This document shows, piece after piece, positions 1,225 to 50,558 of a stretch of DNA of 64,000 nt (the stretch's first letter is position 1; each line of letters begins with the position of its first letter). The notes under the pieces were generated by a model. The model did not search any database and was not told the origin of the DNA. It was given only the letters and a program-made list of their open reading frames with translations. A program made the position numbers and the translations under genes. The DNA lies in the IMG/VR virus record IMGVR_UViG_3300044912_000678, positions 1-64,000 of that record. One strand, written 5' to 3'. This DNA is from a virus.

Positions 1225-1560
1225 TTATGCCATGTCAGAAGCGTTTGGAGCAACTACATCTGGTTCATCTTTAGAAGTTTTCAAACCAGATTTTGCAGCC
1301 GTTCTCAAACCAGACAAAAATGCAGAATCATTAAGATCATCCATATTTGACTTATCTAGTTCTCCTTGAACATCTGGACCTTCGCTTTGCAACAAAGTCA
1401 GTAGTCTTCGAGCAAAAGTTGGGTCGTCAGCAATTGCAATACGAACTGCACGAAGAAGATGAGCTAGTACTGGTCCTTTTGATGCACTTAGACCCCTTCC
1501 AGCTATTTCACGACCAAGATCCATTGCGACATCTTCAATATATTGTTGAAATGTTTTCAT
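1225..1560 (-). CDS. Putative internal head protein with capsid-targeting-like N-terminus
   Basis: N-terminus MKTFQQYIE is close to the T4 IP signal MKTYQEFIAE; GAGG RBS upstream. Confidence 0.65.
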   Translation of the reverse strand: MKTFQQYIEDVAMDLGREIAGRGLSASKGPVLAHLLRAVRIAIADDPTFARRLLTLLQSEGPDVQGELDKSNMDDLNDSAFLSGLRTAAKSGLKTSKDEPDVVAPNASDMA

Positions 1561-1764
1561 TTTTTACCTCAATTTTAATCCCAAAAGCATACTTATATAG
1601 TTGATAGATGCTATTTTTATATTGTCGATCTAATTTTTATAGTGTTAATCTATTTTTTAAAATTGGATTTAAAATATTATGGCGTGAGTAATATATAGCA
1701 TAATGACAGCATTGAAAATCGTGCTACATAAATCATAACTTACAGGCACAGGAGTTGATGAGAC

Positions 1765-3603
1765 ATGAAAAGAAAACTTATAAGCTTTGAAGCATTCAAA
1801 AATTTGCAAGAAAATTCTTTAACCCGTATTGAAGAAGAACTTATTCTTGCTGAAGACATTTTAGGTAAAACTCTCGGCATTGATGTTGAGTTGTTTTCTT
1901 TCACCGAAAACGCTGTTACCTACAAAACCGCTGATGATAACTTCATCAATGCAATTTACAAGCTAGAAGATGATCAAGTTATTTTTGAAAACATTCAAGA
2001 ACTTGTTATCGATGAAGAATCCGCTAAGAAAGGTGCAAGACAAACTATTTCTGAAATGGTGGATGCAATTATCGAAAGCAAGGATGAAATCGCTGACAAT
2101 AAATTTGACGAGTACTTCTCGCTACCAAATGTTCGTAAACAAATTAGCGAAGCAGTTGCATTTAAAGTATCGGTTTCCAAACCTACTGGCAAACGCAGCA
2201 AGCTATTCCACAAGAAACAACCACGCAGCTTAGTAGCAAAGCGTGTTCGTATGAGAAAGCTAAGTCAGAGAAAAATTTCGAAGAGCAAAAAGAAAGAATT
2301 AGGTCGTAAGCGAGCTACAGCTGCAAGGAAACTTGGAAAATCTAAAAATCCTCGTTGGAGAACTTATGTTCGTGCAGTAAAAAATATGAAAGAATGGGCT
2401 AATTTAGCCAATAATGTATCTGGTTATGTTGAATACAAAAATTATGGTCATATGTTGACCGAATCTATAATTCAACCTGACAATAAAGGAAATATTGTTG
2501 CTGTAGCTATTCCAAATACACAAAAAAGGAACGAAGGTAAAATCCTTTCCTTCCAATGGAAAACAATCGATACAGATCTCAAAATTCTTCGTGGTAGTGC
2601 CAAGAAGCTTAATGAGAATCAGACATTTGTAAAGGCTATCGCTGAATTAAAGCGATATAACAACACATCTGATAATTCTTCCCTTGAAGAAGCTCTAGAA
2701 AACATGGTTAGCAAATTCCCCGGAGTTCTTTATTTAACTCAGGAAGAATTGACTAATAATATCGCTGAAGCTTTCGAAATAGCAAATATCACAAATTATG
2801 ATGATGATACTTGCAAGTTTATTGCTGAAGCAATTCTTAGAACTGCACACAGTGCATATACAGATCGTGTAAAGAAAATTGGTACTGCTGCTGGTGTTAG
2901 AACTGATATCACCGCAGAATGCAAAGAATGCAAAGATGCTTATGTGGAATTCCAAAATGTAGCCACTAAGTTATTTTCAAAACTTGATGAAAGCGAAAGT
3001 ATTGATATGAGAGTTTTCTCAGATCTTTATAAGGCTCTTCATGAAATGCACAAAACAGCAAGCGAAATCGGTGACGAAGCAACTAAGATTGAAACCGCAA
3101 GTTTCATGTATGATGTTGAAGCTGTATTAAGCAAAACTCAATCTCCGTCCTTAGAAATGGCTGAAGAAATCGCTGATTATATCAATGATTTAGTTGAAGC
3201 CAATATTGATAACTCTGGCGAATGGAAAGATCATGGAGTTCATACTTCCGCTGATGGAGATCATCCAAATACTGCTTGGAATGCAAAACAAACCGATGCA
3301 GTTCCTTCCAAATTCAATGGAAGGGATGAATATGGTGTTAACCATGCACCTGTAAGTGATGGAAAGGATTTGGGCGGAGATGAAGAAATGGCTCATAATG
3401 CTTTGGGTAATGACGGTGGTGACCATACTTGGCCATCCTTAAGTAACCCTTACATTCCTGATCCCTTCACTTTCACTCTAAAGGGCGAAAAAGGTGTTGA
3501 TAAGGATAATGAGGAAATCGGCACATTCCAGTCGAATGATACTTGGCCAAACCTCAATAATCCATTGCATCCAAAGGCTGAAATAGCCCAACCAGTTGAA
3601 TAA
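1765..3603 (+). CDS. Large prohead core/internal protein (position of T4 gp67/gp68)
   Basis: Lies between portal and protease. Acidic, with a K/R-rich basic block and many [L/I/V]xE sites; N-terminus LISFEAF..LQE. Confidence 0.6.
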   Translation: MKRKLISFEAFKNLQENSLTRIEEELILAEDILGKTLGIDVELFSFTENAVTYKTADDNFINAIYKLEDDQVIFENIQELVIDEESAKKGARQTISEMVDAIIESKDEIADNKFDEYFSLPNVRKQISEAVAFKVSVSKPTGKRSKLFHKKQPRSLVAKRVRMRKLSQRKISKSKKKELGRKRATAARKLGKSKNPRWRTYVRAVKNMKEWANLANNVSGYVEYKNYGHMLTESIIQPDNKGNIVAVAIPNTQKRNEGKILSFQWKTIDTDLKILRGSAKKLNENQTFVKAIAELKRYNNTSDNSSLEEALENMVSKFPGVLYLTQEELTNNIAEAFEIANITNYDDDTCKFIAEAILRTAHSAYTDRVKKIGTAAGVRTDITAECKECKDAYVEFQNVATKLFSKLDESESIDMRVFSDLYKALHEMHKTASEIGDEATKIETASFMYDVEAVLSKTQSPSLEMAEEIADYINDLVEANIDNSGEWKDHGVHTSADGDHPNTAWNAKQTDAVPSKFNGRDEYGVNHAPVSDGKDLGGDEEMAHNALGNDGGDHTWPSLSNPYIPDPFTFTLKGEKGVDKDNEEIGTFQSNDTWPNLNNPLHPKAEIAQPVE

Positions 3604-3613
3604 AAGGAGATGA

Positions 3614-4291
3614 ATGAGCGACAACAAAATGCTACTTGTTGACTCCTGCAATAATGGAGGACTCTTTCTAAATCTTAATGAATCCACCGATAAAGGACTC
3701 ACTAAGTTTAGAGGAAAATTCCAAGAAGCCGAAGCTGTTAACAAAAATAAGAGGATGTATCCACACGGAGTCCTCGATGAAAATGTAAAGAAACTTTTGC
3801 CAGTAATTGAATCTCGTGGGTTGGTTGGCGAACTTGACCATCCCACTGATTCTATCATTCACTTTGAAAAGGCATCTCATGTCATTACAAAGTTGTGGTG
3901 GGAAGGCAATAACCTCATGGGTGAGGGAGAGATTCTTAATACTCCACATGGAAGAATCCTCAAAGCACTTATCAATGATGGTGTACGAGTCGGAATTAGT
4001 AGCCGTGGCGTAGGCAACGGCAAAGTGGACGAGAACGGCATCCTTGTCATTGGCGAGAGCTATAAACTCTTAACTTTTGATGCGGTTGCAGATCCAAGCA
4101 CACACGCTGCCTTTCAGGAGAAGGTGGTAAATAACAAGCGAGAAAATTACGCTCCAATAAATAATTCTATGGAAATACCTGCTAAAAATGAAAGTAGCAG
4201 CATACATAGAGTTAGCAAAGAAGCGTTAATTGCTTGCTTGGGTGGAATAATCGAGGATCAAACAAAAAGTATTAAATCAAAAATTGTTTGA
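3614..4291 (+). CDS. gp21: Prohead protease, T4 gp21-like
   Basis: NKNKRMYP, GELDHP, ILNTPHG, GISSRGVG and FDAVADPS motifs. Confidence 0.95.
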   Translation: MSDNKMLLVDSCNNGGLFLNLNESTDKGLTKFRGKFQEAEAVNKNKRMYPHGVLDENVKKLLPVIESRGLVGELDHPTDSIIHFEKASHVITKLWWEGNNLMGEGEILNTPHGRILKALINDGVRVGISSRGVGNGKVDENGILVIGESYKLLTFDAVADPSTHAAFQEKVVNNKRENYAPINNSMEIPAKNESSSIHRVSKEALIACLGGIIEDQTKSIKSKIV

Positions 4292-4333
4292 TTATTTCTT
4301 AAAACGAAACACTAGCAAAGTGAGGTTAGGCTA

Positions 4334-5236
4334 ATGGAAAAGATAATGGAAGCGATCAAGAAATTGTTGCCTGAGTCCGATGTAAAGGAAGTATCTTCTG
4401 CTATCAGCGAGATGCTAGATCAGGCTAAAGTAAGTCTCGAAAAAGAGTATAATGAAAAGCTTGAAGAAGCATATTCAGATCTCTCTGGCGAACTAAACAA
4501 ATCAGAAAATACTGCGGAAAAAGGCTATGAAGAAGCTTATTCTATCATTGCCGATCTTCGCAATCGTCTTGAAATTCAAGGCGAAGAGTACAAGCAAGCT
4601 ATGGAAGAAGGATATGAAGAAGCCTATCAGATGCTTAAATCTGAAAGAGCTAAAAACAATTCTCTTGAAGTAGAACTGTACGAAGAATACGACAAGAAAC
4701 TTCATGAAATGAAGGAATACATTGTTGATAAGGTAGATCAATTCCTTCAAGTGAAGGGTCAAGAAATCTATGAACAAGCTCGCAAGGACATCGTAACCGA
4801 TCCTCGCTTGGCTGAACATAAGGTCGTTCTCGATAAGATTGTTGACCTCACCAGCAATTATCTTTCCGATGATGAAGTGAACAATGTCTCTTCAGCAAAA
4901 GTTGAAGAAGCAATCAAACAAGCCGATGAACTTAAAGGTCAACTTCGAATTATGGAAGCCCGTAATATCAGGCTTTCTACCGAAAACACTAAACTTAATG
5001 AAAATGTACGCTATGCTAAAAATTTAATTACAGAGCAAACAAGGGCGGTTGAAAGTCGAAAAAAGTCTGAAGTAATTACAGAACAGAATGCAAGGGTTGA
5101 AAAAGCACAGAATGTAACGGGGAGAGGTAATAAGGTTGTTGATCAAGAAGTCGTAATTGCGGAAAATTATGACAACAACAACAGCAGTGAAATAGACCAA
5201 ATCTTGGTTCTTTCAGGTGTGAAAAAACCAAAGTAA
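4334..5236 (+). CDS. gp22: Prohead scaffolding protein, gp22-like
   Basis: Acidic coiled-coil between gp21 and gp23; contains IVDKVDQFL. Confidence 0.85.
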   Translation: MEKIMEAIKKLLPESDVKEVSSAISEMLDQAKVSLEKEYNEKLEEAYSDLSGELNKSENTAEKGYEEAYSIIADLRNRLEIQGEEYKQAMEEGYEEAYQMLKSERAKNNSLEVELYEEYDKKLHEMKEYIVDKVDQFLQVKGQEIYEQARKDIVTDPRLAEHKVVLDKIVDLTSNYLSDDEVNNVSSAKVEEAIKQADELKGQLRIMEARNIRLSTENTKLNENVRYAKNLITEQTRAVESRKKSEVITEQNARVEKAQNVTGRGNKVVDQEVVIAENYDNNNSSEIDQILVLSGVKKPK

Positions 5237-5270
5237 AAGCTAAATTCTAACAGTAAAAGGAAATTTTAAT

Positions 5271-6701
5271 ATGAACGCTAATGCTAGATTTTTAAATGAA
5301 GCTAAAGAGTTAGAAGGACGCTGGGCTAAAACTGGTCTCCTCAATGGAATCGAAGACCGTAATACTCGTGCAGCCACAGCAGTTCTTCTCGAAAACCAAC
5401 GCCTTATCAACGAAGTGTCTACCGACACCGCTGACATCGCACAATTCAAACGAATCTCCATACCATTGGTTCGTAGGATTTACCCACAGTTGATCGCTAA
5501 TAAGATCGTATCCGTCCAGCCTTTGCTTGGACCTACTGGTCTTGTTTATTATCTCCGCTTCCGCTATTCATCCAATAAGGGTGCTACCCGTGGTGCAGAT
5601 AATAATGGCGGCTTCCCCGGTGATGACGCAAACTCCTTGATGCAGAAGGCTGATGGTACTGCAAACCTTGATATCTTCTATTCTCACCAGTTCGTTCAAA
5701 ACGAGAGACTAGTAGATGCAGGTGGCGATACCACTTCCAACTTCACACTTGAACGAGGACCAATTTTGGCTGGTACTATTACTGGTACTATCTATGATGG
5801 TGCTACAGCAGTATATACATTCAATTTTAGTGCTGGTGGCACATTCAATAAAACTGAAATTGGCTCACCTTCACCCGCTGTATCTACTGGCACAATTGAT
5901 TTGACCAGTGGTGCATTGACATTGACTTGGGATAGCGATCCCGGTGCAAATAGCGTAGTAATGAGCTACGAATCTAATCTTGAATGTAATCAAGACCTTC
6001 CAGAAATCAACCTCGTTGTTGAATCTGAAGATATTACCGCCAAGACCCGTAAGTTGAAGGCTGTATGGTCTTATGAAGCTCAACAAGATCTTCGTTCGCA
6101 ACACAACTTGGACGCTGAAGCCGAATTGACCGCAGTTCTTGCTCAAGAAATTAATCTTGAAATTGATCGTGAAGTCCTCACCGACCTCCGTCAAAATGCT
6201 GGTACTGTAACCGCTTGGGACTTCAACACCTCCTTAGGTGATACCATCAAGGAAAAATACGAATCTCTCTATGTGAAGATCGTTGAAATTTCCTCCGTTA
6301 TTCATCGTAAGACCCTTCGTGGTGGTGCTAACTTCATCGTTACATCTCCCGAAGTTGCTTCGATCTTCGAAACCGCAACCGCTGGTTTCGCTCCTGCTCC
6401 TAGCGAAACATTCACTAGCTCCCTTGGCATCCAGTATGTCGGAACTGTGAACAATCGTTGGAGATTATATAAAGATCCATTGTTCCAAAGCAATCAAATC
6501 CTTATGGGCTATAAAGGCGATTCATATCTTGACTCAGGATATTTCTACTGCCCTTATGTTCCTCTTACTCAGACACCTGTTGTTCTCGATCCAGAGAGCT
6601 TTTGCCCCAGAAAAGGTATTTTGACAAGATACGGAAAAAAATTGTTAAGGGAAGGTGCTAAATTCTACGCAAGAATGTCGATTGCTAACTTTATTATTTA
6701 A
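5271..6701 (+). CDS. gp23: Major capsid protein, T4 gp23-like
   Basis: LLENQ, VSVQP..GPTGL, TAKTRKLKA.W..E..QDL...H.LDAEAEL...L..EI..EIDRE, YCPYVPL and TRYG motifs. Confidence 0.97.
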   Translation: MNANARFLNEAKELEGRWAKTGLLNGIEDRNTRAATAVLLENQRLINEVSTDTADIAQFKRISIPLVRRIYPQLIANKIVSVQPLLGPTGLVYYLRFRYSSNKGATRGADNNGGFPGDDANSLMQKADGTANLDIFYSHQFVQNERLVDAGGDTTSNFTLERGPILAGTITGTIYDGATAVYTFNFSAGGTFNKTEIGSPSPAVSTGTIDLTSGALTLTWDSDPGANSVVMSYESNLECNQDLPEINLVVESEDITAKTRKLKAVWSYEAQQDLRSQHNLDAEAELTAVLAQEINLEIDREVLTDLRQNAGTVTAWDFNTSLGDTIKEKYESLYVKIVEISSVIHRKTLRGGANFIVTSPEVASIFETATAGFAPAPSETFTSSLGIQYVGTVNNRWRLYKDPLFQSNQILMGYKGDSYLDSGYFYCPYVPLTQTPVVLDPESFCPRKGILTRYGKKLLREGAKFYARMSIANFII

Positions 6702-6732
6702 TTTTTACTCTCTATAAAAATAGTAAAAATTT

Positions 6733-6858: not shown

Positions 6859-7998
6859 ATGAATATAGAAGAATTTAAATTTAAGTATATAACATTTAAA
6901 GATATAGAAAAGATTGAGATAAATTGTGATCATCCACAACACGAACCAAAAGATGAAATTATTATCATTGGAAAGCAACCAGCCAAAAGAAACATATTAA
7001 AAAATGATGGCGAAAGTTTTATCTGCAGAAAATGTTATATGCATCACAACAATCCAGTAAACAAAGTTGGAGAAAATCGACAAACAGAAGAAATTGTTAA
7101 TGTTTATTGTCCTCATCCAAAACACGATGGAAATCATTGCCGTCAAATGAAAAAACGCAATTATTATGGTTCATTACAAGAACCGTATTTACAGCTTTGT
7201 AAAAGTTGCATTCAATTAGGAAAAGAAATTAGCGAAGAACAAAAAGAAAAAATTCGCATGAGTCTTACTGGAATCAAGCGTAGCGAAGAGTTTAAGAAAA
7301 AACTAAGTAATTACATGAAAAATAATCCAGAAGGTATAGCCAGAGCAACAAAAAATATTATCGAAAATCATTGCATTAATGGAATGTTAGGAAAAGTTCA
7401 TTCCGAAGAAACAAAACAAAAAATGTCTGAATCCCACATGGGAAAAGAATTTTCTGAAGAGCATTGCCAAAATATTTCAGAAGGCAGAAAGAAAATGCTT
7501 GAAGAAACTGGAGGGTTCACCAGAGAGCATAAAGAGAATATTTCAAAAGCTACTGTCGCACAATACAAAAAAGGTTTTGATCCAAAACTTCATCATTTGA
7601 GTGGCTGGCATGAATCTTCAAAAGCTGGAAGAGTATTTTATAGATCGTCCTATGAGAAGAAAGCATATTTAAAATTAGACGAAGACGATTTTGTAAAAAA
7701 TTATTTTGTAGAAAAAATTGAAGTTGAATATTTTAATCCAATAAAAGAAATAACCTCCTCCTACATCATTGATATCTTAATAGAATATAAAGATGAATCA
7801 AAAAAATTAGTCGAAGTAAAACCAGAGAAATGGTTAAGTGATGAAGTTGTCATATGTAAAATCAATGCTGCTAAAATAAAAGCAAAAGAACTTGGTATAT
7901 CGTTTGAGGTTTGGACAGAAATCAATTTATTTGGTCATGTTTATAATGAAAAAAATATGAGATCTTTTATCGAAAAGATAAGAAAAAAAACTAAATAA
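6859..7998 (+). CDS. Putative free-standing homing endonuclease (Zn motifs + NUMOD3-like repeats + TnsA-like PD-(D/E)xK domain)
   Basis: Repeats such as HSEETKQKMSESHMGK; C-terminal YRSSYE..Y..D.L.EY....LVEVKP; two N-terminal C-x-HP-x-H/CxxC units. Confidence 0.75.
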   Translation: MNIEEFKFKYITFKDIEKIEINCDHPQHEPKDEIIIIGKQPAKRNILKNDGESFICRKCYMHHNNPVNKVGENRQTEEIVNVYCPHPKHDGNHCRQMKKRNYYGSLQEPYLQLCKSCIQLGKEISEEQKEKIRMSLTGIKRSEEFKKKLSNYMKNNPEGIARATKNIIENHCINGMLGKVHSEETKQKMSESHMGKEFSEEHCQNISEGRKKMLEETGGFTREHKENISKATVAQYKKGFDPKLHHLSGWHESSKAGRVFYRSSYEKKAYLKLDEDDFVKNYFVEKIEVEYFNPIKEITSSYIIDILIEYKDESKKLVEVKPEKWLSDEVVICKINAAKIKAKELGISFEVWTEINLFGHVYNEKNMRSFIEKIRKKTK

Positions 7999-8001: not shown

Positions 8002-8358
8002 ATGTTGCTATCATATTCAGAATGGAAAATAGTCAGTAATTTCAAACCTTATGAATTTTATAGGGAAGGGATTGCCGACTTTATTTCGCCATCTAAAATC
8101 ATTGAAAAAATCAAAAATCATTATGAGAGACTATCAGTCAAATATGGCAAGAACATGGCTAAAATCATCATAGGAGTGGCATTACTAGGCACTTTATCTC
8201 CGATTCCGGGTTCTAGCATTATTGCTGCATTGCCTTTTGTTGGTTTGGCTGAAATTATCAATTTGATCAAAGGAAAGCCAGAAATCGAAAAAGAAGTTAT
8301 GCAAACTCATGAAAAAGAAACAAAAGAAATTATAAATGATTTACAATTAGAAACATAA
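8002..8358 (+). CDS. Hypothetical protein with hydrophobic hairpin and CTS-like start
   Basis: MLLSYSEW; IIIGVALLGTLSPIPGSSIIAALPFVGL segment; CTAAATA just upstream. Confidence 0.55.
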   Translation: MLLSYSEWKIVSNFKPYEFYREGIADFISPSKIIEKIKNHYERLSVKYGKNMAKIIIGVALLGTLSPIPGSSIIAALPFVGLAEIINLIKGKPEIEKEVMQTHEKETKEIINDLQLET

Positions 8359-8735: not shown

Positions 8736-9422
8736 ATGAATTTTTCAAAATGGTTTTATGAGCAAGGTTCTACCATTGGCACAGAAAATGTCGATGAGAC
8801 CCAAATTGATTCTGCATATAAAAGTGCAAAATATTCAGTAAAGTTAGTACAACTTTACGATAGATTGACAGGTCAGAAGTTACTTAAAAATATAAGCACC
8901 ATTGCGTTATTGCAATCAGGTGCTTATGGTCTTTATAGTTCAGCAGAAAATAAAAAAATTGTAGGGGCTTCTGTTGCAAACAAGATCAAAATGAAATTTG
9001 GTTCTGACATTATGATGAATCAAAAGTTAAATACAGTTCCTAATGCTGTTATCAAGAAATACATTCCAGATATAGATGTAAATCAATTACAGCCATCAGA
9101 TGTAATTCGTGTAAATGTTCAAAAGCATTTAGCAACTCACGGAGATACTTTGGATGCTATAATTGAAATAGCCAGTACGATTGTTCACGAATGCACTCAT
9201 GAGATTGAGTTGCAAACAACGGGAACAACAAGTGAAGTTGGTCCTGTAAGGGCTGAAAAAATATTCATAGATTGGGTATCCAAACATTGGCAGGTTATTC
9301 GCCAACAAATACCTATACTAGCGTCATATCGAAGCAAAGGTCAATCACAACAGCCTAATACTATGCAGCCAAACAAAGTTCAATCACAACAGCTTAATAC
9401 TATGCAACCAAGGCAAATCTAA
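8736..9422 (+). CDS. HExxH metallopeptidase-like protein with CTS-like start
   Basis: TIVHECTHEIE plus a downstream E; start moved to MNFSKWFYE (GGAAGG RBS). Confidence 0.55.
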   Translation: MNFSKWFYEQGSTIGTENVDETQIDSAYKSAKYSVKLVQLYDRLTGQKLLKNISTIALLQSGAYGLYSSAENKKIVGASVANKIKMKFGSDIMMNQKLNTVPNAVIKKYIPDIDVNQLQPSDVIRVNVQKHLATHGDTLDAIIEIASTIVHECTHEIELQTTGTTSEVGPVRAEKIFIDWVSKHWQVIRQQIPILASYRSKGQSQQPNTMQPNKVQSQQLNTMQPRQI

Positions 9423-13374: not shown

Positions 13375-14142
13375 ATGGGTGCAACAAGTCGAGAAGGTGT
13401 AGGAATAGGCTCTGTAAATAAAATTAAACCACTTATAATAAATGGCGTAGTAAAAGCTGAAAACCTCGGTGTCGATATTCTACACAACTGGAAATACGAC
13501 ATCAACGCAACTGGCGATATGACAACCGAATCAAATATCAGTGCAGATGGCGACATTTCGTCTGGTGGCGATATATCCGCTGATGGTGATATTTTATCTG
13601 GTAATAATATATCCGCTGATGGTGACATTTCGTCTGGCAACAATGTAACCGCAGATGGCGATATATCCGCTGATGGTGACATTTCGTCTGGCAACAATAT
13701 AACCGCTGAAGGTTACATCAGAGGTGACGCAATTGGACAACACTTGAATACGAGTTTCTATACATTCACCGCTGGCGAATTGACCAACAACAGTAATGAC
13801 TATACTGATTTTGCATCAGTTTCATACACGCCAGTATCCAACAGCAGTTCCTTGTACATTGAGTATAATGCAACTTATGCTGTTGGTGGAGGCTTGGCAG
13901 ATAATTTCAGATCTAGAATAACGGTAAATGATGTTGAGATAACATGGAGAAACCAAGCATGGACAAATAGTGCAGGTGGTGGCACTAGAAGTGCAGTACT
14001 GTTTCCCATTGCCATGGTTTTTTCAAATTCTGTCACAACTGCGTTGACCATTAAAATCCAAGCAAAGAGGGATGGAGCAGATGACATCCTCACCTTGAAC
14101 ACCAACAGTGCGGTGTTGAAAGTTTCTGAGTACGCAAGGTAA
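13375..14142 (+). CDS. MGATS-leader protein 1 (beta-repeat shaft + C-terminal beta domain; fibre/decoration-like)
   Basis: Shared leader; (I/V)(S/T)ADGDI(S/L)SG repeats. Confidence 0.6.
   Translation: MGATSREGVGIGSVNKIKPLIINGVVKAENLGVDILHNWKYDINATGDMTTESNISADGDISSGGDISADGDILSGNNISADGDISSGNNVTADGDISADGDISSGNNITAEGYIRGDAIGQHLNTSFYTFTAGELTNNSNDYTDFASVSYTPVSNSSSLYIEYNATYAVGGGLADNFRSRITVNDVEITWRNQAWTNSAGGGTRSAVLFPIAMVFSNSVTTALTIKIQAKRDGADDILTLNTNSAVLKVSEYAR
13535..13712 (+). repeat. 36-bp degenerate coding repeats (ISADGDISSGxx)
   Basis: atatccgctgatggtgacatttcgtctggcaacaat and variants occur about 5 times. Confidence 0.85.
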
Positions 14143-14170
14143 CTTGGTTTTTTTAAAACTAAGTTTTTTA
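14141..14170 (+). terminator. Weak terminator after MGATS gene 1
   Basis: aacttggtttt/aaaactaagtt stem (one G.U pair) followed by a T run. Confidence 0.5.
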
Positions 14171-14198
14171 ATTTCTACTTATTACAAAGGAGATCATT

Positions 14199-15170
14199 AT
14201 GGGAGCTACAAGTAATGAAGGTGTCGGAATAGGATCGGTAGAGAAATATTTACCGAAAATCGTAAACGGTGTCGTGAAAAAAGAAAACATACAACAAGGT
14301 AAAATTTTCGAAAACTTTACATCGGATATTTTGATTTCCACGGCAGATGGAACTGCTGGCAATAATGATGCAAGCAGCATTACCATTAAAGCAGGTGATG
14401 GATATCCGTTAGCGGTCGATCCTCCCGAGGCTGATGGAGTCGGAGATGATGCTGATGGTGGCAGTGTTTTCATCTACGCTGGTAAAGCTAATGGTAATGG
14501 CGAAGGCGGAAACATTGAAATATTCGCTGGTGATACCGGCAATGGTCCAGATGCAAACGCTGGAAATGTAACGATTAGAGGTGGTGATGCCGATAGTGTC
14601 GAAAACAGCGATGCTGGCGATGTAAACATCTATGGTGGCGATGGATCAAGTGGTACTACTGACAGCGAGGGTGGCGATATTAATATTGAAGCTGGCGATG
14701 CTGGTGGCGATGGTGAGGCTGGTCATGTCCATATTCATGCTGGCGATAGTGGAACTGGAGATGGCATCAATGAGGGTGAGGATTATCCAGAAGCAGGCGA
14801 CATAGAAATCACTGCTGGCAATTCACTAGCCACTACAGATGTAGATGGCGGAGACATCCGTATCGAAGCTGGTGATGGCACAGTTGATGGTCGTGGTGGC
14901 GATATCGAGATTACTACTGGTAATAGCGTTGGCACAGATCGTGCTGGCGATATGTTTCTTACTTGTGGCACTAATTCTGGTTCTGGTAGAAATGGTCACA
15001 TTTATATTCAAAGTATGCCAATCATGCCAGTATATGCAAATAATACTGCAAGAGATGCTGCTGCTGGTACTGCAACCAACGGCATGTTTTGTTACAACAC
15101 AGCGACAAGCAACATAGAAGTCTATGTTGGCGGTGCATGGAAGAGTGTGGATGTAACTGCGATTGTTTAA
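14199..15170 (+). CDS. MGATS-leader protein 2 (Gly/Asp-rich GGDIxIxAG repeats; fibre-like)
   Basis: About 9 G(G/A)D(I/V)xIxAG repeats; C-terminal NGMFCYNTATSNIEVYVGGAW, a type seen in phage fibre proteins. Confidence 0.6.
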   Translation: MGATSNEGVGIGSVEKYLPKIVNGVVKKENIQQGKIFENFTSDILISTADGTAGNNDASSITIKAGDGYPLAVDPPEADGVGDDADGGSVFIYAGKANGNGEGGNIEIFAGDTGNGPDANAGNVTIRGGDADSVENSDAGDVNIYGGDGSSGTTDSEGGDINIEAGDAGGDGEAGHVHIHAGDSGTGDGINEGEDYPEAGDIEITAGNSLATTDVDGGDIRIEAGDGTVDGRGGDIEITTGNSVGTDRAGDMFLTCGTNSGSGRNGHIYIQSMPIMPVYANNTARDAAAGTATNGMFCYNTATSNIEVYVGGAWKSVDVTAIV

Positions 15171-15175
15171 TGTAA

Positions 15176-15245
15176 TATTTGAACGGTTTTAAATTTCTTG
15201 AAGCCGTTCAAATAAACTTAGTCTTTATGTTAAGCTAAGTTTATT
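15176..15245 (+). terminator. Tandem hairpins after MGATS gene 2
   Basis: tatttgaacgg/ccgttcaaata and aataaacttag/ctaagtttatt inverted repeats. Confidence 0.65.
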
Positions 15246-15281
15246 GTGTTTGATTTTTTTTATATATAAAAGGAGATTATT

Positions 15282-15845
15282 ATGGGAGCTACATCAACAG
15301 AAGGAACAGGACAAGGTTCTGCATCAAAAATCAAGCCATTGGTTTTCAATGGTTCTGTAAAAACAGTAAACATCGAGCCAAATGCTGTGACCGCAGCTAA
15401 TCTCGACAACAACGCATTGTCAAAAGCACCATTCGTGCTTAATGTTGCGACAATAACTCTTGATTCAAGCAAAGCTGGAATTCCTTTGGTTTTCACTAGG
15501 GCAGCAGGTGTTGTTGCTACTCTTCCAGCAGCTACTGGAACTGGTGATATTTATAAGTTTTATGTTAATACCACTGTAACTAGCAACAGCTACAAAATTC
15601 AAGTAGCTAATGCAACGGACATTATTTCTGGCTTGGCTCTTGCCGATGACGGAGAGGGTGAGCCAGCAAATGGTTGGCCAACTACTTCGACTACTGATAC
15701 CATTACAATGGATGGATCTACTCAGGGTGGCATCAAAGGCGACAGTCTTGAGATAATAGATATCGCTTCTGGTCAGTTCTGCGTAAGGGCATTCCTTACA
15801 AATAGCGGTACTGAAGCGACTCCTTTCAGTGCAGCAGTTTCTTAA
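15282..15845 (+). CDS. MGATS-leader protein 3 (beta-rich virion-type domain)
   Basis: Shared leader; TLPAATGTG.Y.F...GD.LE..D motif typical of phage structural proteins. Confidence 0.6.
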   Translation: MGATSTEGTGQGSASKIKPLVFNGSVKTVNIEPNAVTAANLDNNALSKAPFVLNVATITLDSSKAGIPLVFTRAAGVVATLPAATGTGDIYKFYVNTTVTSNSYKIQVANATDIISGLALADDGEGEPANGWPTTSTTDTITMDGSTQGGIKGDSLEIIDIASGQFCVRAFLTNSGTEATPFSAAVS

Positions 15846-15854
15846 GTTCAATTG

Positions 15855-15946
15855 GGTATGCGTCTTGGTTTTCTCCAAGACGCATACCTTTTGCTTTTAT
15901 AATTTAAAAAAAAGACAATGCAGTTTTAAATGCATTGTCTTTTTTT
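15855..15946 (+). terminator. Two consecutive terminators after MGATS gene 3
   Basis: ggtatgcgtcttgg/ccaagacgcatacc + TTTT; aaaaaaagacaatgca/tgcattgtcttttttt. Confidence 0.85.
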
Positions 15947-15979
15947 GTTCATAAAGCTTACATATTATAGAGGTGAAAA

Positions 15980-16336
15980 ATGGGTGCTTCAAGCGTTACT
16001 GGAATAGGTTGTGGATCGGTTGGAAAATCATCACTTACTGCTACTTCTTCTAATTCAAATGATTCTTGTGTTCCTTTATCTATAAGTAGTTTGATGGGTC
16101 CAAGAATTATAGCTGCTGGTGTCATGAATTTGAAAGAAGAGAATGCAGAAATTGTATTTACGGCTCCATCAGGATCTGTAAATGAATATACTGTATTTTT
16201 ACAAGATAACAATAAAGTGGCAATTGTTAGTTCAAATTTAAAGGCAGATGCCCATAATAGCAACTGGAGTTTTTATATTACGGGCAAGCCAAAAACAACA
16301 ATTTCTTGGATGGTTATAAAATTAGGTATCTTTTAA
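15980..16336 (+). CDS. MGASS-leader protein 4
   Basis: MGASSVTGIGCGSVGK leader followed by a small beta domain. Confidence 0.6.
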   Translation: MGASSVTGIGCGSVGKSSLTATSSNSNDSCVPLSISSLMGPRIIAAGVMNLKEENAEIVFTAPSGSVNEYTVFLQDNNKVAIVSSNLKADAHNSNWSFYITGKPKTTISWMVIKLGIF

Positions 16337-21593: not shown

Positions 21594-21809
21594 ATGAGTC
21601 TTATTTCTTTCAGAGAATGGCTAGATAAAGAACAAATTGATTTGCCTCTTTTGGGTCAACCAAATAGCAATGCCGATGAAGTATTTGGTTTAACTGGCGT
21701 TAAAAGTAAATATGCCATGACAAACACGAAAAGTGGTCAAACTGATTTTAATCCAGATGAGAAGTTTTTTTGTGGTAAGAAAAAAAATAGAGGAAGGAAA
21801 AAAACTTGA
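21594..21809 (+). CDS. Small protein with CTS-like start
   Basis: MSLISFREWLDKE; ATAAATA immediately upstream. Confidence 0.6.
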   Translation: MSLISFREWLDKEQIDLPLLGQPNSNADEVFGLTGVKSKYAMTNTKSGQTDFNPDEKFFCGKKKNRGRKKT

Positions 21810-39679: not shown

Positions 39680-39928
39680 ATGAAGTCTTTTATTGAATTT
39701 TGTCAGGAAACGAAAAAAGAATTGCCCGTTTACGATTTGTCAGAAAAGACAACTAGGGGCGGGATTATGAGTTGGGCTTATCCAGATGCATATATCAGAA
39801 GCCACTATCCAGCAGCTTATTTTATGCCAACATCCGCTGATGCGGTTCAAAAAATGGGTAAAAAAGTTGACGATAGTAAAGTTGATCATGGACAGTTCAA
39901 GTATAAAAATCATGACAATCTTGACTAA
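39680..39928 (+). CDS. Small protein with CTS-like start
   Basis: MKSFIEFCQE; GAGG RBS; CTAAATA at 39615. Confidence 0.65.
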   Translation: MKSFIEFCQETKKELPVYDLSEKTTRGGIMSWAYPDAYIRSHYPAAYFMPTSADAVQKMGKKVDDSKVDHGQFKYKNHDNLD

Positions 39929-42778: not shown

Positions 42779-43324
42779 TCATTTTGGACCTCTTTTTAAA
42801 TTAACTGGCTTTAATTTATCTTGATGTCTGTCTGGCTGATCTTTCAGATGGTGCATCATATTTTTAACTTCTTTTGCAATCTCTGATGCATTATCAGCAC
42901 ATTTTTTAGTTGATTGTACAGATATTGTTTTTCTTTCTTTGTTGTAAAATCCTTTAGAAATAAGAAAACATTTTTCTTTGTCACTCCAGCTTATAACACC
43001 AGTCCATTCTCCGTCATCCCAATTTCTTGAACTAACAAGTAATCGCAATGGCTTCTCTTCAAATACATGCTTTGTGTGCAATCCCATCTTTTTAAGACCA
43101 GCACTGACATAGCCAAGAACTAATTTTGCAAATGCTTCCATTACATCTTCTTTGTTTGTTCTATAGTCAACATTAATGCTATAGCGAGATGTTTGAGATG
43201 ATTCGACAAATATTTTTTTAGTTAATTCTTTAGCAGCAATTGAAAAAACTTCACTTTGAACTTTTTCAAGTTGTGAATGTAATTCTTCGTGATTTTTAAC
43301 AAGCCATGTTTTGTAATCTACCAT
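42779..43324 (-). CDS. Hypothetical protein with CTS-like start
   Basis: Start moved to MVDYKTWLVKNHEE, directly after the gp13 stop. Confidence 0.6.
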   Translation of the reverse strand: MVDYKTWLVKNHEELHSQLEKVQSEVFSIAAKELTKKIFVESSQTSRYSINVDYRTNKEDVMEAFAKLVLGYVSAGLKKMGLHTKHVFEEKPLRLLVSSRNWDDGEWTGVISWSDKEKCFLISKGFYNKERKTISVQSTKKCADNASEIAKEVKNMMHHLKDQPDRHQDKLKPVNLKRGPK

Positions 43325-44244: not shown

Positions 44245-46521
44245 ATGAAATTTTTAAATTTTATAAAACGAAAAATTTTTAACGAAATGGCAATTATGGG
44301 AGATGTTATTCGTCAACCAATTCGCCTAGATAAAGACGATATTGAGTTTTTATATCAATTTCCTCCAGAACTTTGGGTTCAAGCAATTAAAAAAAGATAT
44401 CATGATGATCTTGCAGAAGCTTTAGACGCAAGAGGTAAGGCAAGACTAAGTGACAAAAATAAGATTAAAGAATTGGCAATTAAATCTATTAGATCTAGAA
44501 ATTTCAAACAACTCAATGATGATTATCCACAATATTTTGATGAAAAAACTGTTGACAAATTGCGTAAAGAATACAACAAAATAGAAAAAAAACATTATCA
44601 AGATCAAGGTTCAGAAGAATATGAAAAAGCATTGGAAAATGCTGGGAATGCCATTGCTTATTATGCTGTAGAAAAAATTCATCCTCACGCAGAATTAAAG
44701 AATGCTCCTAAAATATATGATTTTAAATTTGGACAAAAAAAAGTTACAATTACGGCAAAACCATTCATTAATCGGCTTATTCATAAATTAGAAAAAACAA
44801 AAGGCGAAGCACATGATAAAGTAGTTGGTCTACATCCAGATGAACATAGTCACGGACAATATGGTTATGATTTACAAAAGACTTTTTCTGGACATGGTTT
44901 ACTTCCCGGTGCAACTGAAGGTATGCAATTGATAACCAAAGATATGGCAGAAGAAGCAATTAAAGAATTATTGAAAGACAATTATCAGCATTATTACGGC
45001 AAACTTCCAGATGTTGGCGAAGAGGTAAAATTGCCAGATGGAAGCACTAGAAATATAGAAAAAGAAGCTCATGTTGTAAAAAAGTTAGGATCAAAAACAC
45101 ATCGAGAAGACAATACAATCGAAGGCGAAGACAAAAGAATAAAACTTCCAACATTCAAACAAAAAATTACTATGAATGGCGAAACTATTGAAATTGACAT
45201 GCCATTCATTATGTCAACAAAATATACCAAATATGTTGGTCCAAACAAAGGCAATATTGGAAAAAGAAAAGATAGAATTGAAATTGATCCTGATGATTAC
45301 ATGAATATGGCTTCTGAAGCCGGTGTAAGTAGTGGTGGATCTTTTACATCTAATAAAAATAGAGCCGCAGAAAGAAAAAAAGCATTTGGAGTTGCTGGAT
45401 CTAAAGAAGAAAGAGAAAAAGTTATTGGAGTAATGGAAAAGTATGGTCCAGAAAACAAAGATTATCCAGATCTTTATAAAGATATTGTTGCTGGTATTAT
45501 GCAAGCGATAACGCAAAAAAAATCATATACAGGTATTAGAGATTGGGAATTTACCATTGCGAAAAATAACATTAAAGAAATTCATGATATGATTTTAAGT
45601 AAACTTGAAAATAATATAAGTAACAAAAAATATCATGGAAAAAATTATAAAGCAAATCAGGCAAGAAGAGATTTTGCAAAAAATGCAACCATTTCAATTC
45701 TTGGTCAAAATATACATGGAGGAGAAACAAGAAGATTACGAACTTCTCAAATGGATGCTCCAGAAATAATTCCAACATCTTTAAGAACACCAAACCAAGA
45801 AGAATTAATTTTAAATCTTGATAAAATGTCAAATGAATTATCTGCGACTGGCAGAAAAAGAATTGCTGGTGAATTAGCATTTCCTTACACATACCTCAAA
45901 AAAATTGTTAAAAACATTGAGGATGAAAGTGCCGAAGCAGAAAAAGCAGATAGAATCATAGGACAATCGGCAGACATAGCTCCAGAAGTATTAAAAAAAA
46001 TATTTGGAGAAAATCATCGTAGAAAAGCACTTTTGATTTCTGCTATGAAAGAAGTTTTGGAAAAGCTTATTTTTACAAATTCTGCCGGTACATTAAGTAC
46101 GCCTAAGTCCGAAGAAGAAGCCAACAAAGTTATTACAAATCAAATACTTCCTAAAAAAACAATTTCTGCTATGGTGGCTTCTTTCGCTCATTTGACAATG
46201 GTTCAAAACGCAATGCGAGAAGAACCAGTTGCTACTATTCCAACTAGAGATTTTGAAAATAAACAAAAATATTCTAAATTACCAAAAGACATGCTTGATC
46301 CTCGTCAAAGAGCCAAATCAAAAAATTTGCTAGTCTTGCAATCCGATAAAGATTGGTTGGCACTTACATTTAAGTATAATTTCATGGTTAATGCTGAAAT
46401 GGGAACTCTATTATCTATAGAGAAATGGATTAATGATCAATACACAGCTGGTAAGATTCCTAATCAATATTATGCTCCAGCAATGGCAGAAATAAAGCAT
46501 TATAAAAATATCAAGAAATAA
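44245..46521 (+). CDS. Large hypothetical protein with CTS-like start (putative internal head protein)
   Basis: MKFLNFIKRKIFNE-MA; 758 aa, charged and helical. Confidence 0.55.
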   Translation: MKFLNFIKRKIFNEMAIMGDVIRQPIRLDKDDIEFLYQFPPELWVQAIKKRYHDDLAEALDARGKARLSDKNKIKELAIKSIRSRNFKQLNDDYPQYFDEKTVDKLRKEYNKIEKKHYQDQGSEEYEKALENAGNAIAYYAVEKIHPHAELKNAPKIYDFKFGQKKVTITAKPFINRLIHKLEKTKGEAHDKVVGLHPDEHSHGQYGYDLQKTFSGHGLLPGATEGMQLITKDMAEEAIKELLKDNYQHYYGKLPDVGEEVKLPDGSTRNIEKEAHVVKKLGSKTHREDNTIEGEDKRIKLPTFKQKITMNGETIEIDMPFIMSTKYTKYVGPNKGNIGKRKDRIEIDPDDYMNMASEAGVSSGGSFTSNKNRAAERKKAFGVAGSKEEREKVIGVMEKYGPENKDYPDLYKDIVAGIMQAITQKKSYTGIRDWEFTIAKNNIKEIHDMILSKLENNISNKKYHGKNYKANQARRDFAKNATISILGQNIHGGETRRLRTSQMDAPEIIPTSLRTPNQEELILNLDKMSNELSATGRKRIAGELAFPYTYLKKIVKNIEDESAEAEKADRIIGQSADIAPEVLKKIFGENHRRKALLISAMKEVLEKLIFTNSAGTLSTPKSEEEANKVITNQILPKKTISAMVASFAHLTMVQNAMREEPVATIPTRDFENKQKYSKLPKDMLDPRQRAKSKNLLVLQSDKDWLALTFKYNFMVNAEMGTLLSIEKWINDQYTAGKIPNQYYAPAMAEIKHYKNIKK

Positions 46522-47962: not shown

Positions 47963-47998
47963 ATTTATTGTACATAAATAAGCCTGAGAGGTAAATAT

Positions 47999-49555
47999 AT
48001 GATTAATATTTTATTTAGAAAATGGTTCTTAGAGAACGACACATTCACAATTTCTTTATTCAATAATTCAATTAACGAAGCGAAAAAAATGGGAGGAGAA
48101 GGTTTTTTAGATGAATTATCCTTAGAGTATTATGAAAAAGAAATTAAATATAGAATCAAACAATTCGCAGATAGGTTGAAAGATAAAGAAAAAATAAAAC
48201 AAATTGTTCCTTTTAGCATATTAGAAGATTTAGCTAAACAAAAAAAAATTACAATTAATGTACTTATAGACGATATACATAAGGCTGCAAATAAATATAA
48301 CAAAGATGAAGATGAAATAAAATATACTTCTTTTTTGCAAAATTTGCACATTCATAAAATGCATCCAAGTGGATCAGATGCTTTAGCGACTTCTCTTTTT
48401 CAAAAAATAAAATCTAAAACCAAACCAAATTACATTTATCGTAGTCTTAAGACAGTGGATAAAATTATTGATAATGATAAATCAGAACTTAAAAATCCTC
48501 CAGAAAATCCAAAAATTGGAGATAGGCACCAAGCCCAAGGTTACACATGGAAATTCATGAGTGACAGAACATGGATAAAAATTAGAAAAGACACAGACGA
48601 GTATGAAGGAACAGAATTGTTAAATATGTTTAATAGAAGCAAATTAGATCGTCCTATGTTGAAAGCAATTTTGCATTATTATGATAATGATTATTTTAAT
48701 GAAAAAGAAGTCATGAAAGACTTTGAAGGTTCATGTAAATATATTGGAAGAAATCAATTGAAAAAAGATATTGGAAAAGATGCAATGGTGAAAGCCGATC
48801 CATACAAAGGAGATAAAACCAAAATATTTGAAAGAGCAAAAATTAAATTTCCTAATCCAGAAATAGATAGTATCTATAAAGACGAAGAAACTAACACTAC
48901 TTGGAATTGGATTTATTCAAAGAAAACAAAAGGCATGGGATGGAAAGAAATTCTAAAACAAAAACCAATTTCACATATTAGCTTACACGGTGAAGACGGA
49001 GATGACCTTGAAGTAGAAGGAAGAGAAAAAGAAGAAAATCCATTAGATCCAGAGAGTGAATATAGTTCTAAAGAATATGATGCTGAAATTAAAAAGTATG
49101 GTGATTACGAAGTCACAAAACCATTTGGCATTAAAAGTCCTCAAAAAAAACCAACAACAGATCAAAAAAACACAATAAGAGATATTGTTTCAGGTCTAGA
49201 ATCATTTAAAAGCTATTTAGAAACCACCACAACATTGGCGAATGATATACCAAAATCTAAAACCAGATATGGTTATATTAAAAAAGATAATACCGAAAAA
49301 GATAATTTTTCTGTGTACGAATTTTACCGTAAAATTTTTATTGAACTTACTGATGATTTTATCTCACAAATCAAAGGTGGAAAAAATTCATCTGATGTAC
49401 AAAAGACTTTTCCAAAGTGGTTTGCAAATAAAGAAATTTTATTGCCTAGCAATGCTAAAAAAATAGCACTCTGGTCGAGATTTACAAAAGAAAAATATAA
49501 CTATGAGCTTGAATCATATGCATATAAAAATAATTTTAAAATAAAAGATAAATAA
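47999..49555 (+). CDS. Large hypothetical protein with CTS-like start
   Basis: MINILFRKWFLE; two P.NP.I...TW.(F/W) mini-repeats. Confidence 0.55.
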   Translation: MINILFRKWFLENDTFTISLFNNSINEAKKMGGEGFLDELSLEYYEKEIKYRIKQFADRLKDKEKIKQIVPFSILEDLAKQKKITINVLIDDIHKAANKYNKDEDEIKYTSFLQNLHIHKMHPSGSDALATSLFQKIKSKTKPNYIYRSLKTVDKIIDNDKSELKNPPENPKIGDRHQAQGYTWKFMSDRTWIKIRKDTDEYEGTELLNMFNRSKLDRPMLKAILHYYDNDYFNEKEVMKDFEGSCKYIGRNQLKKDIGKDAMVKADPYKGDKTKIFERAKIKFPNPEIDSIYKDEETNTTWNWIYSKKTKGMGWKEILKQKPISHISLHGEDGDDLEVEGREKEENPLDPESEYSSKEYDAEIKKYGDYEVTKPFGIKSPQKKPTTDQKNTIRDIVSGLESFKSYLETTTTLANDIPKSKTRYGYIKKDNTEKDNFSVYEFYRKIFIELTDDFISQIKGGKNSSDVQKTFPKWFANKEILLPSNAKKIALWSRFTKEKYNYELESYAYKNNFKIKDK

Positions 49556-49557
49556 AA

Positions 49558-50100
49558 ATGGCATTAAAAAATACAGATGGAACTTGTTATAAGCCTTTAG
49601 GAAGTGTGCAACAGTACAATCCCAATGCACCAGAACATGATCTTTTCAATCAATGGGATCAAGAATCTATCAGGCGTGGTGGATCTCCTTTGTATTACTA
49701 TGAAGTTTTTATTCAACAACAAACTGTAGATCCACTTTATTTGGAAGATCGTGGTAAAATATTTTCAAACAATCCAATTCAATTGTGGTGTAGTTACGAA
49801 CCAATACCATCTCAAAATGCATTAAGTCAATTTGGTATAGATTCACCAGACGAAATGGTATTTGAAGTAAATTACAAGGCTGTTCTTCAATCTATAGGAC
49901 ATCCTCCAAAGATTGGATCAAGAATTTTTAGTCCTCACTTAAGAGAAAATTGGGTAATTATCCAACGAAACTTAGGTGAGTTTAAATTGTGGGGAGCATT
50001 AAGAATGGAACTCATTTGTCAGAGATTCCAAGAATCTGTTACGACTGGCGAAGGCGAAGTTACACAGAAACAACCAGACCTTAAAATTAAAATTGTATAG
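49558..50100 (+). CDS. gp14: Neck/head-closure protein, gp14-like
   Basis: E.I...G..L.YY, DPLY.ED..K.F, S.FGI...DE..F and P.IG..I..P. Confidence 0.75.
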   Translation: MALKNTDGTCYKPLGSVQQYNPNAPEHDLFNQWDQESIRRGGSPLYYYEVFIQQQTVDPLYLEDRGKIFSNNPIQLWCSYEPIPSQNALSQFGIDSPDEMVFEVNYKAVLQSIGHPPKIGSRIFSPHLRENWVIIQRNLGEFKLWGALRMELICQRFQESVTTGEGEVTQKQPDLKIKIV

Positions 50101-50108
50101 GAGATTTC

Positions 50109-50558
50109 ATGGGTATATTTTTTGAATTCTTAGAAAAAATTCGTATTGAAAAAATGTTATTAGAACAAGATGCACCACAAGGATCGCCACAAGGTGGTAA
50201 TCCTCAAGATCAAGGAAATATGACAGCACCAGACGCTCCTCCAGAACAGCAAGATTCAAGTTCTGGTCAAGGCGAAGAAAGTGGTCTATCTCCAACTGCT
50301 CATGACGATAATTTTTCAAAATTAATTGATATTATGAAACAAGCTTTGCCAGATTTGAAACCAGAAAATAGAAAAATTATTGATGCATTTTTAAAAACAA
50401 ATAATTTATCTGGCGGAGATGAACCTAAAAAAGATTCCCAAGACCAAGACCAAAGTCAGGGTCAAGACCAAAGTCAGGGTCAAGCACCGCCAACAGGAAT
50501 GGGCGATCAATCAGGAATGCCAGCACAACCTAACCAGATGGCTGCTCCACAAATGTAG
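50109..50558 (+). CDS. Gln-rich protein with CTS-like start
   Basis: MGIFFEFLEKIRIEKMLLEQ. Confidence 0.6.
   Translation: MGIFFEFLEKIRIEKMLLEQDAPQGSPQGGNPQDQGNMTAPDAPPEQQDSSSGQGEESGLSPTAHDDNFSKLIDIMKQALPDLKPENRKIIDAFLKTNNLSGGDEPKKDSQDQDQSQGQDQSQGQAPPTGMGDQSGMPAQPNQMAAPQM

Follow-up and report, generated by a model that had tools for sequence, protein, structure and literature searches.

In this study, we analysed the window, a stretch of 64,000 nucleotides (nt) that forms the first 64 kb of the 76,363-bp viral contig IMGVR_UViG_3300044912_000678 from IMG/VR, and found that about one gene in seven on this fragment encodes a protein with a shared tag-like N-terminus, in which two aromatic residues three positions apart are followed closely by Glu. 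The tag is probably a capsid targeting sequence (CTS) of the bacteriophage T4 type, that is, a propeptide that directs proteins to the prohead, used on a far larger scale than in T4. The proteins that carry it would dock in the prohead, be cleaved after Glu, reside in the virion and be ejected with the DNA. CheckV gives the contig a completeness of 16%, so the genome should be near 0.5 Mb, and judged from its genes the source is a T4-type huge phage of about this size. The G+C content of the window is 30–39%, the DNA runs that contain it, at 99–100%, are lake-water metagenomes, and a megablast search of the window against cultured phages gave no match.

The genes were called independently of the motif, by a codon-usage score with start choice by Shine-Dalgarno sequence and start-codon type, which gave 98–99 genes on the contig. 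The pattern [FY]xx[FWY]x(0-6)E began within the first 10 residues in 16–17 of them, compared with 2.5 ± 1.4 in random internal windows and 4.1 ± 1.9 in shuffled N-termini; the excess over shuffled controls that the first-pass annotation of the window had set as a condition is therefore present. Because this pattern had been derived from the same data, two pattern-independent tests were added. Among about 2000 residue pairs (gaps 0–4, first 15 residues compared with internal windows), FxxF ranked first (13 of 88 versus 1.5 expected, p = 4e-9), and the second-ranked pair was four orders of magnitude weaker. A weight matrix trained solely on LR756511.1 (595,163 bp, 41% G+C), which together with the complete relative G001 (532,729 bp, 53% G+C) served as a comparison genome, scored 10 contig N-termini at 8 bits or more where 0.2 were expected; one of the ten is a false positive with a hydrophobic, signal-peptide-like N-terminus (19201–20028). 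Our own expectation-maximization motif finder reached similar likelihoods on the N-termini and on shuffled controls, a sign of overfitting, and the residue-pair scan and the cross-genome matrix were used instead.

The first-pass annotation had quoted 17 N-termini, all of which were found where it had placed them, with two starts adjusted (35249(-) to 35237, and 8736 to either 8736 or 8724). By matrix score or orthologue conservation, 13 of the tags in the window are convincing and four are weak or atypical (1765, 8002, 21806 and 24980). Its figure of about 15–17 tags thus holds for 13, and one further tag, on the contig outside the window (67115–67639 (-)), was missing from it. Its description of the tagged proteins as mutually unrelated was borne out: without their first 20 residues, the 18 candidates had no similarity to each other (best pair E = 0.036). 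By this comparison the tag appears to be portable, with unrelated payloads that have only the tag in common. Chance or AT-rich composition as the source of the motif was rejected on the window, shuffle and residue-pair controls, paralogy on the lack of similarity past residue 20, and a nucleotide-level signal on the differing synonymous codons.

The anatomy of the tag points to the T4 CTS. In T4, the 10 N-terminal residues of IPIII are enough to bring about incorporation into the head (Mullaney and Black 1996, reported in section 2.6 of PMC9026906). CTS residues 4 and 7 are the main determinants of targeting, residues 8 and 10 determine processing, the gp21 site is L/I-x-E with the cut behind Glu, and the propeptides of the internal proteins are 10–19 residues long (PMC9026906). 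Both ipII and ipIII begin MKTYQEFIAE, with Tyr, Phe, Ile and Glu at residues 4, 7, 8 and 10. The information in our matrix falls on F/Y at position 0 (4.3 bits), W/Y/F at +3 (5.0 bits), a hydrophobic residue at +4 and Glu at +5 to +8, and we favour a T4-type CTS because these positions match the four mapped residues; upstream, K/L at -2 and T/N/S at -1 are also as in T4. The motif begins at residues 2–11, and the predicted propeptides, counted from Met to the first Glu that follows the aromatic pair, have 9–19 residues, compared with 10–19 in the T4 internal proteins. When applied to the 241 T4 N-termini, the LR756511-trained matrix placed ipII and ipIII in the top four (11.4 and 10.7 bits, respectively). 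Several tags (RLNE, SLNE, LINE, NLQE and RLDE) end like the predicted maturation site of the capsid protein, LINE|V. In three genomes, the first acidic residue behind an aromatic pair is Glu instead of Asp more often at N-termini than at internal sites (p = 0.025, 0.039 and 0.005), which fits the finding in T4 that Asp blocks processing. In LR756511, the tagged proteins are also more basic than the rest (isoelectric point 8.1 versus 6.2, p = 1e-4). In the T4 scan a third protein scored above both ipII and ipIII, at 14.3 bits: gp61.1 (gene 61.1, AF158101 18966–19130, a hypothetical protein of 54 amino acids), which begins MKTFKEFIKED and, by this resemblance, may be an unrecognised CTS-bearing protein.

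The window also encodes a T4-type head module (Table 1). Its S77 protease presumably cuts off the tag behind Glu, and the scaffold-like protein, which had no Pfam or PHROG match, is the presumed docking partner. The maturation site of the capsid protein is predicted after Glu48 (LINE|VSTD) and, on alignment with T4 gp23, falls on the known LTE|AEIG site. The combination of S77 protease, scaffold and gp23-type shell is also found in the relatives G001–G005 and in LR756511. A tail sheath, two tube proteins, a baseplate hub and a gp15-like protein are encoded in the window as well; in agreement with the first-pass annotation, the motif is absent from these and from the sugar-enzyme genes. The capsid protein has hundreds of IMG/VR relatives at 81–99% identity, including contigs of 223–533 kb. 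Its best match among deposited phage records is the uncultured 595-kb LR756511.1 (78% identity), followed by XacN1, Microcystis phage Mel-JY01 and cyanophages at 31–36%. The idea of the tag as a mimic of a repeat unit in the scaffold was not confirmed, the scaffold (4334–5236) not being enriched in tag-like units.

Comparison with the relatives indicates that the tag is a property of the clade and is conserved as protein across genomes of 32–53% G+C. N-termini of the form [FY]xx[FWY]-hydrophobic-x(0-5)-E number 27 in G001 versus 6–7 expected, an excess of about 20 genes, and 50 in LR756511 versus 12–14 expected, an excess of 35–40 genes. The LR756511 tags cluster in 350–595 kb, the late and structural half, and their consensus is rich in W, whereas that of the tags here is rich in F. 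The motif had initially been called genome-wide, too broad a term for tags that, in the complete relatives, lie mostly in this half. No enrichment was found in T4, XacN1, Mel-JY01, cyanophage ACG-2014f or the unrelated huge phage LR756508.

Among orthologues the tag is kept while the protein bodies diverge. The N-terminus of 1225–1560 is the closest match to the T4 CTS, and its 14 orthologues, with 30–38% overall identity, yet all begin MK[TS]F.[EQD][YF]. The counterparts of the 277-amino-acid protein (34404–35237), which begin MLSYKQWKMLNE in G001 and MISYKQWKILSE in LR756511, can be aligned with it over the first 40 residues or so only, and half of the conserved residues are encoded by different codons. 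The contig is syntenic with G001 333–445 kb, and some syntenic slots hold tagged genes of unlike body: that of 47999 is occupied in G001 (406236) by a non-homologous tagged protein of 269 amino acids, MMDTTFRLWLIDE, and that of 22097 (G001 368915) by a gene that begins MMRKFHEWVNLRLRE and resembles it over the first 40 or so residues. In 42779–43324, the body is 57% identical to LR756511 473554–474063, and the two N-termini (MVDYKTWLVKNHE versus MLNFKDYVEE) cannot be aligned but both fit the motif. About half of the conserved tag residues are encoded by differing synonymous codons (e.g., TCT/TCA and AGC/TCC for Ser), and the F/Y, F/W/Y and I/L/V/M/F exchanges within tags keep the chemistry rather than the nucleotides. 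LR756511 also has three adjoining small tagged genes at 589654–590531 (MLTFMDWLKAKE, MKTFIDWLKVKE and MLTFLEYVVRCDE), a tandem array reminiscent of the ipII–ipIII pair of T4.

As to the cargo, the tagged proteins of the window are nearly all orphans with respect to Pfam and PHROGs, the exceptions being the helix-turn-helix (HTH)/sigma-region-4-like protein 30078–30389 and the weakly tagged GP88-domain protein 24980–26080. The enzymes and regulators that had been proposed as payload are thus represented in the window by one regulator-like protein, the HTH protein, and by no recognisable enzyme; tagged enzymes were seen only in the relatives. There, entire domains follow the tag: NUDIX begins at residue 14, NIF/HAD phosphatase at residue 22, C39 peptidase at residue 27 (tagged in both G001 and LR756511) and DUF3293 (SAM-lyase-like) at residue 21. 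Further tagged domains are thymidylate kinase, 2H phosphoesterase, HAD_SAK_1, poly(A)/CCA polymerase-like and phosphoribosyltransferase. Payloads reach 758 amino acids in the window and 1076 in LR756511. Several of the tagged enzymes belong to RNA-repair or nucleotide-signal-degrading classes, which would suit counter-defence delivered in advance.

We propose that the propeptide of 9–19 residues would form a short amphipathic helix, with the two aromatics three residues apart and the next hydrophobic residue on one face. This face would dock the protein on the scaffold core during prohead assembly, the core being the gp22-like protein (4334–5236), perhaps with the 612-amino-acid protein (1765–3603). 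On closure of the shell, the gp21-type S77 protease (3614–4291) would cut after the final Glu of the tag, as it would cut the capsid protein after LINE(48), and the mature protein would be free inside the head and leave it with the DNA at infection. If only the tag is needed, payload genes could be swapped freely. Tagged genes number about 14–18 on the contig and roughly 20–40 in the complete relatives. The first-pass annotation had presented the motif as a capsid-targeting cargo tag. The motif itself, the head machinery, the match to the CTS residues, the capsid site LINE|V, the Glu preference, the orthologues and the promoters agree with this, whereas presence in the virion, cleavage, injection and action before phage gene expression remain inferences.

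Several observations weigh against a CTS. The spacing of Glu from the aromatic pair varies from 2 to 8 residues, and Leu or Ile stands three before Glu in only about one-third of the tags, others having Phe, Tyr or Cys, so that the fit to L/I-x-E is loose. The scaffold is not unusually rich in tag-like units (by matrix matches it ranks 11 of 61, with one conserved site, YEEYDKKLHE). Some tagged enzymes of the relatives are housekeeping-like (thymidylate kinase, the CCA/poly(A) polymerase-like protein and phosphoribosyltransferase) and have no obvious reason to be packaged. Other T4-type lineages do not use the motif widely, and the extrapolation from T4 spans a large distance, with capsid proteins about 30% identical. 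Finally, the clade has no cultured member, and packaging is predicted here from sequence.

The tag might instead be a docking or recognition signal for some other late-acting machine, such as another virion substructure, a chaperone, a modifying enzyme, or proteolysis through an S8 protease or a McsA-like adaptor, with no loading into the head. Shared N-terminal leaders can indeed serve one enzyme instead of a capsid, and the housekeeping-like functions among the tagged enzymes would be less surprising. Candidate components are encoded in the window, where an S8 subtilisin-like protease gene adjoins a Cys-rich McsA-like gene (27405–28737; both in G001, at 62% and 29% identity). The phage also has at least two shared N-terminal modules, since a second leader, MGATSxEGxGxGS..., differs from the tag; it is common to four consecutive genes (13375–16336 (+)) that then diverge, and has a G001 counterpart at 356431 (MGATSVTGVSGPG). 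Nevertheless, we consider such a machine unlikely. Conservation in the tag falls on the counterparts of the four residues mapped in the T4 CTS (PMC9026906) and ipII and ipIII score high with the matrix of this clade, the terminal Glu suits a Glu-specific S77 protease and the predicted capsid site while subtilisin-type S8 enzymes do not favour Glu, and no candidate partner enzyme was found to co-vary with the tag.

It is less likely still that the tagged proteins are transient parts of the prohead core or scaffold, degraded and expelled like T4 gp67 and gp68, or form a structural inner body, rather than being injected cargo. Most of them have no recognisable enzymatic domain, giant phiKZ-like phages form an inner body from processed head proteins (PMC5694885), and two of the genes, 1225–1560 and 1765–3603, sit in the portal–protease interval, where T4 has genes 67 and 68. 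In the relatives, however, whole enzyme domains carry the tag (NUDIX, phosphatases, C39 peptidase, 2H phosphoesterase and nucleotidyltransferase), a DNA-binding protein is tagged in the window, and the payloads turn over fast, like the counter-defence cargo of T-even phages (PMC3012670). A role in the core may hold for a subset, especially the 612-amino-acid protein, which lies where T4 carries its prohead-core genes 67/68 and, by that position, may belong to the core instead of the cargo. Its 57 orthologues are near-invariant in the first 16 residues at an overall identity of 36–97%. An AlphaFold2 model of this protein (predicted local distance difference test 67, predicted template modelling score 0.34) has a helix at residues 8–16 and, in a Foldseek comparison at E ≤ 0.001, matched nothing in BFVD or PDB.

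The CTS also gains from the promoters of the tagged genes. As the first-pass annotation had remarked, many of these genes have the late-type element TA[ATG]ATA just upstream: it lies within 18 nt of the ATG in 7 of 16 tagged genes and 5 of 82 others (odds ratio 12, p = 4e-4), and the association recurs in G001 (odds ratio 24, p = 1e-11) and LR756511 (odds ratio 19, p = 2e-17). This fits proteins that must be made during prohead assembly. The element is usually 4–5 nt (range 4–9 nt) before the ATG, often without a Shine-Dalgarno sequence. That the motif is a by-product of expression signals, with the first codons of leaderless late mRNAs constrained for initiation or mRNA stability, would account for this strong link and the frequent lack of a Shine-Dalgarno sequence but is very improbable, because about half of the tagged genes lack the element and many of these have ordinary ribosome-binding sites, about half of the genes with a proximal promoter lack the tag, the offset of the motif varies (residues 2–11), and the amino acids are conserved across 32%, 41% and 53% G+C with differing synonymous codons and with exchanges that keep the chemistry. 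The arrangement of an element 4–5 nt before the ATG and no Shine-Dalgarno sequence is seen upstream of 8002, 17426(-), 21594, 24980 and 30389(-), as well as in G001 and LR756511, and is conspicuous in the 53% G+C genome of G001 (e.g., ctaaataNNNNNATG). Such spacing suggests leaderless or nearly leaderless late mRNAs.

Table 1. Head-module genes and tag candidates on the contig (positions in the window unless marked; matrix trained on LR756511.1; aa, amino acids)
Feature	Position (strand)	N-terminus	Matrix score	Grade	Basis and relatives
Portal, C-terminal part	3–974				phrog_213
Tagged 111-aa protein	1225–1560 (-)	MKTFQQYIE...	15.1 bits	convincing	between portal and protease
612-aa mostly helical protein	1765–3603 (+)	MKRKLISFEAFKNLQE, tag-like in a different register	-0.5	atypical	
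Prohead protease, T4 gp21 type	3614–4291 (+)				PF03420 Peptidase_S77, E = 4e-27; 71% identity to G001 counterpart
Scaffold-like coiled-coil protein, gp22 position	4334–5236 (+)				position and composition; 66% identity in G001
Major capsid protein, gp23-type	5271–6701 (+)				PF07068, E = 1e-88
118-aa candidate	8002–8358 (+)	MLLSYSEWKIV..., no Glu soon after the aromatic pair	5.6	weak	no orthologue found (relatives including G001 and LR756511)
Tagged 228-aa protein	8736–9422 (+)	MNFSKWFYE...	14.8 bits	convincing	start 8724 or 8736; orthologues begin MKGFKQWLSE, MKKFKEWLSE, MKSFIQWLE
Tagged 178-aa protein	16890–17426 (-)	MNFNEFVRLNE...	14.9 bits	convincing	phrog_18980; late-type promoter 4 nt before ATG; orthologues begin MDFSEFFRLDE, MGFHDFVKIEE, MEFTKWLSLQE, MNFSGWLNE
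Tagged 445-aa protein	17867–19204 (-)	MISFKESLE..., without second aromatic	8.7 bits	convincing	no orthologue in G001 or LR756511
Tagged 71-aa protein	21594–21809 (+)	MSLISFREWLDKE...	18.7 bits (top score of contig)	convincing	G001 orthologue begins MRLSFKDWLHE
93-aa candidate	21806–22087 (+)	(M)ILVSFCSLLEN...		weak	orthologues begin MAVSFQKLWESME (G001) and MTFLEAWES (LR756511), F-x3-W-E variants
Tagged 148-aa protein	22097–22543 (+)	MSLKKFTEWCEFKE...	15.2 bits	convincing	
366-aa candidate, GP88 domain	24980–26080 (+)	FSSFMRLDE from residue 11	2.3	weak	PF17338, residues 117–253
Tagged 103-aa HTH/sigma-region-4-like DNA-binding protein	30078–30389 (-)	MQGFIEFFE...	11.9 bits	convincing	weak HTH matches; LR756511 orthologue begins MDGFKEFFAE
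Tagged 277-aa protein	34404–35237 (-)	MLSYKNWKSLNE...		convincing	start most likely ATG 35237, not TTG 35249, as in orthologues
Tagged 82-aa protein	39680–39928 (+)	MKSFIEFCQETKKE...		convincing	two G001 paralogues, MKTFLNWAGENKKE and MKSFIQWAWMNKKE
Tagged 181-aa protein	42779–43324 (-)	MVDYKTWLVKNHE...		convincing	
Tagged 758-aa protein	44245–46521 (+)	MKFLNFIKRKIFNE...		convincing	orthologues begin MLLKFKEFLDN (LR756511) and ..VTFRDFFQD (G001); no lead in Pfam, PHROG or ESM Atlas
Tagged 518-aa protein	47999–49555 (+)	MINILFRKWFLE...	8.4 bits	convincing	
Tagged 149-aa protein	50109–50558 (+)	MGIFFEFLE...	4.0	convincing	no orthologue found
Tagged protein	contig 67115–67639 (-)	MNFKQFLINE			outside the window

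Some features of the head module deserve comment. Metatranscriptome contigs from four runs cover 1711–6700, with the 612-amino-acid gene, the protease, the scaffold and the capsid gene, and pieces of three other tagged genes; these contigs hold no levels, strands or 5′ ends, DNA carry-over is possible and uncovered parts are uninformative, which makes the cover a weak sign of expression. The N-terminus of the scaffold, MEKIMEAIKK (4334–4370), resembles that of T4 gp67, MEGLIEAIKS. The capsid protein may have a second cleavage site after Glu10, as its N-terminus, MNANARFLNE (5271–5300), has a tag-like end. Directly 3′ of the capsid gene lies a NUMOD3/TnsA-like endonuclease gene (6859–7998 (+)), a position comparable with that of segD after gene 23 in T4. 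This gene is probably a mobile homing-endonuclease insertion, because it is not present in G001 and one metatranscriptome contig departs from the window at 6702. Base composition is about 32% G+C in G000, 53% in G001 and 41% in LR756511 despite capsid proteins that are 78–85% identical, which implies a strong and fast compositional drift that perhaps tracks different hosts.

T4 loads three or four proteins into its head by a 10-residue tag, and these are front-line counter-defence factors. A possible extension of this scheme, which we put forward tentatively and hold to be somewhat short of an even chance, is that in this clade of freshwater phages of 0.5–0.6 Mb one conserved address peptide, perhaps exchangeable for the T4 CTS, specifies the complete set of packaged proteins, 20–40 injected effectors per genome that would range from RNA-repair and nucleotide enzymes through peptidases and phosphatases to DNA-binding regulators, all entering the cell together with the DNA. 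If true, the proteins that an uncultured 0.5-Mb phage carries into the cell could be listed from sequence alone, and the list would be a large source of proteins with candidate roles in anti-defence and takeover. It would also help to explain what purpose some of the additional genes and capsid volume of huge phages serve, with payload slots evolving as swappable cassettes. The tags would furnish T4-based protein-delivery vectors with a natural collection of CTS variants.

Three known systems can be compared with the tag described here. Encapsulin cargo-loading peptides illustrate the principle: a short terminal peptide is enough to load unrelated enzymes into an HK97-fold shell, and the cargo is predictable from sequence. 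They differ in that they are usually C-terminal, are not removed by a protease and bind the shell directly, and the compartment contains no DNA and injects nothing. The phiKZ-like phages (phiKZ, 201phi2-1 and SPN3US; PMC5694885, PMC7411985) are, like the phage studied here, very large, with many head proteins and a T4-related protease that cuts after Glu. However, their propeptides are mostly longer than 100 residues and have no common N-terminal address, and their cleavage motif is A/S/G-x-E (PMC5694885), whereas the tags here have 9–19 residues, a shared address and a hydrophobic instead of a small residue before x-E. Eight of the approximately 50 head proteins of SPN3US are processed, whereas here one short tag marks the set.

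The closest parallel is the CTS of the T4 proteins IPI, IPII, IPIII and Alt (PMC9026906, PMC3012670), which has already been suggested to let T4-like phages take in various proteins (PMC9026906); our literature search found no paper in which dozens of proteins of huge phages share one CTS-like tag. The T4 CTS and the putative propeptides here are alike short and N-terminal, with aromatics at the equivalents of residues 4 and 7, and the tag favours a hydrophobic residue next and a Glu towards its end, as in T4. Both genomes encode an S77 protease along with a gp22-like scaffold and a gp23 capsid protein, and in both the payloads are unrelated and fast evolving, tend to be basic and keep only the tag. 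In contrast to the two or three genes of T4 that score with the motif, about 14–18 do so on this 76-kb contig, many of them 4–5 nt behind a late-type promoter, with some large payloads and, among the relatives, some complete enzymes, a variable Glu spacing and a looser L/I-x-E. Known here from its sequence, this tag would thus extend a T4 device for a few internal proteins to a much larger and more varied set.

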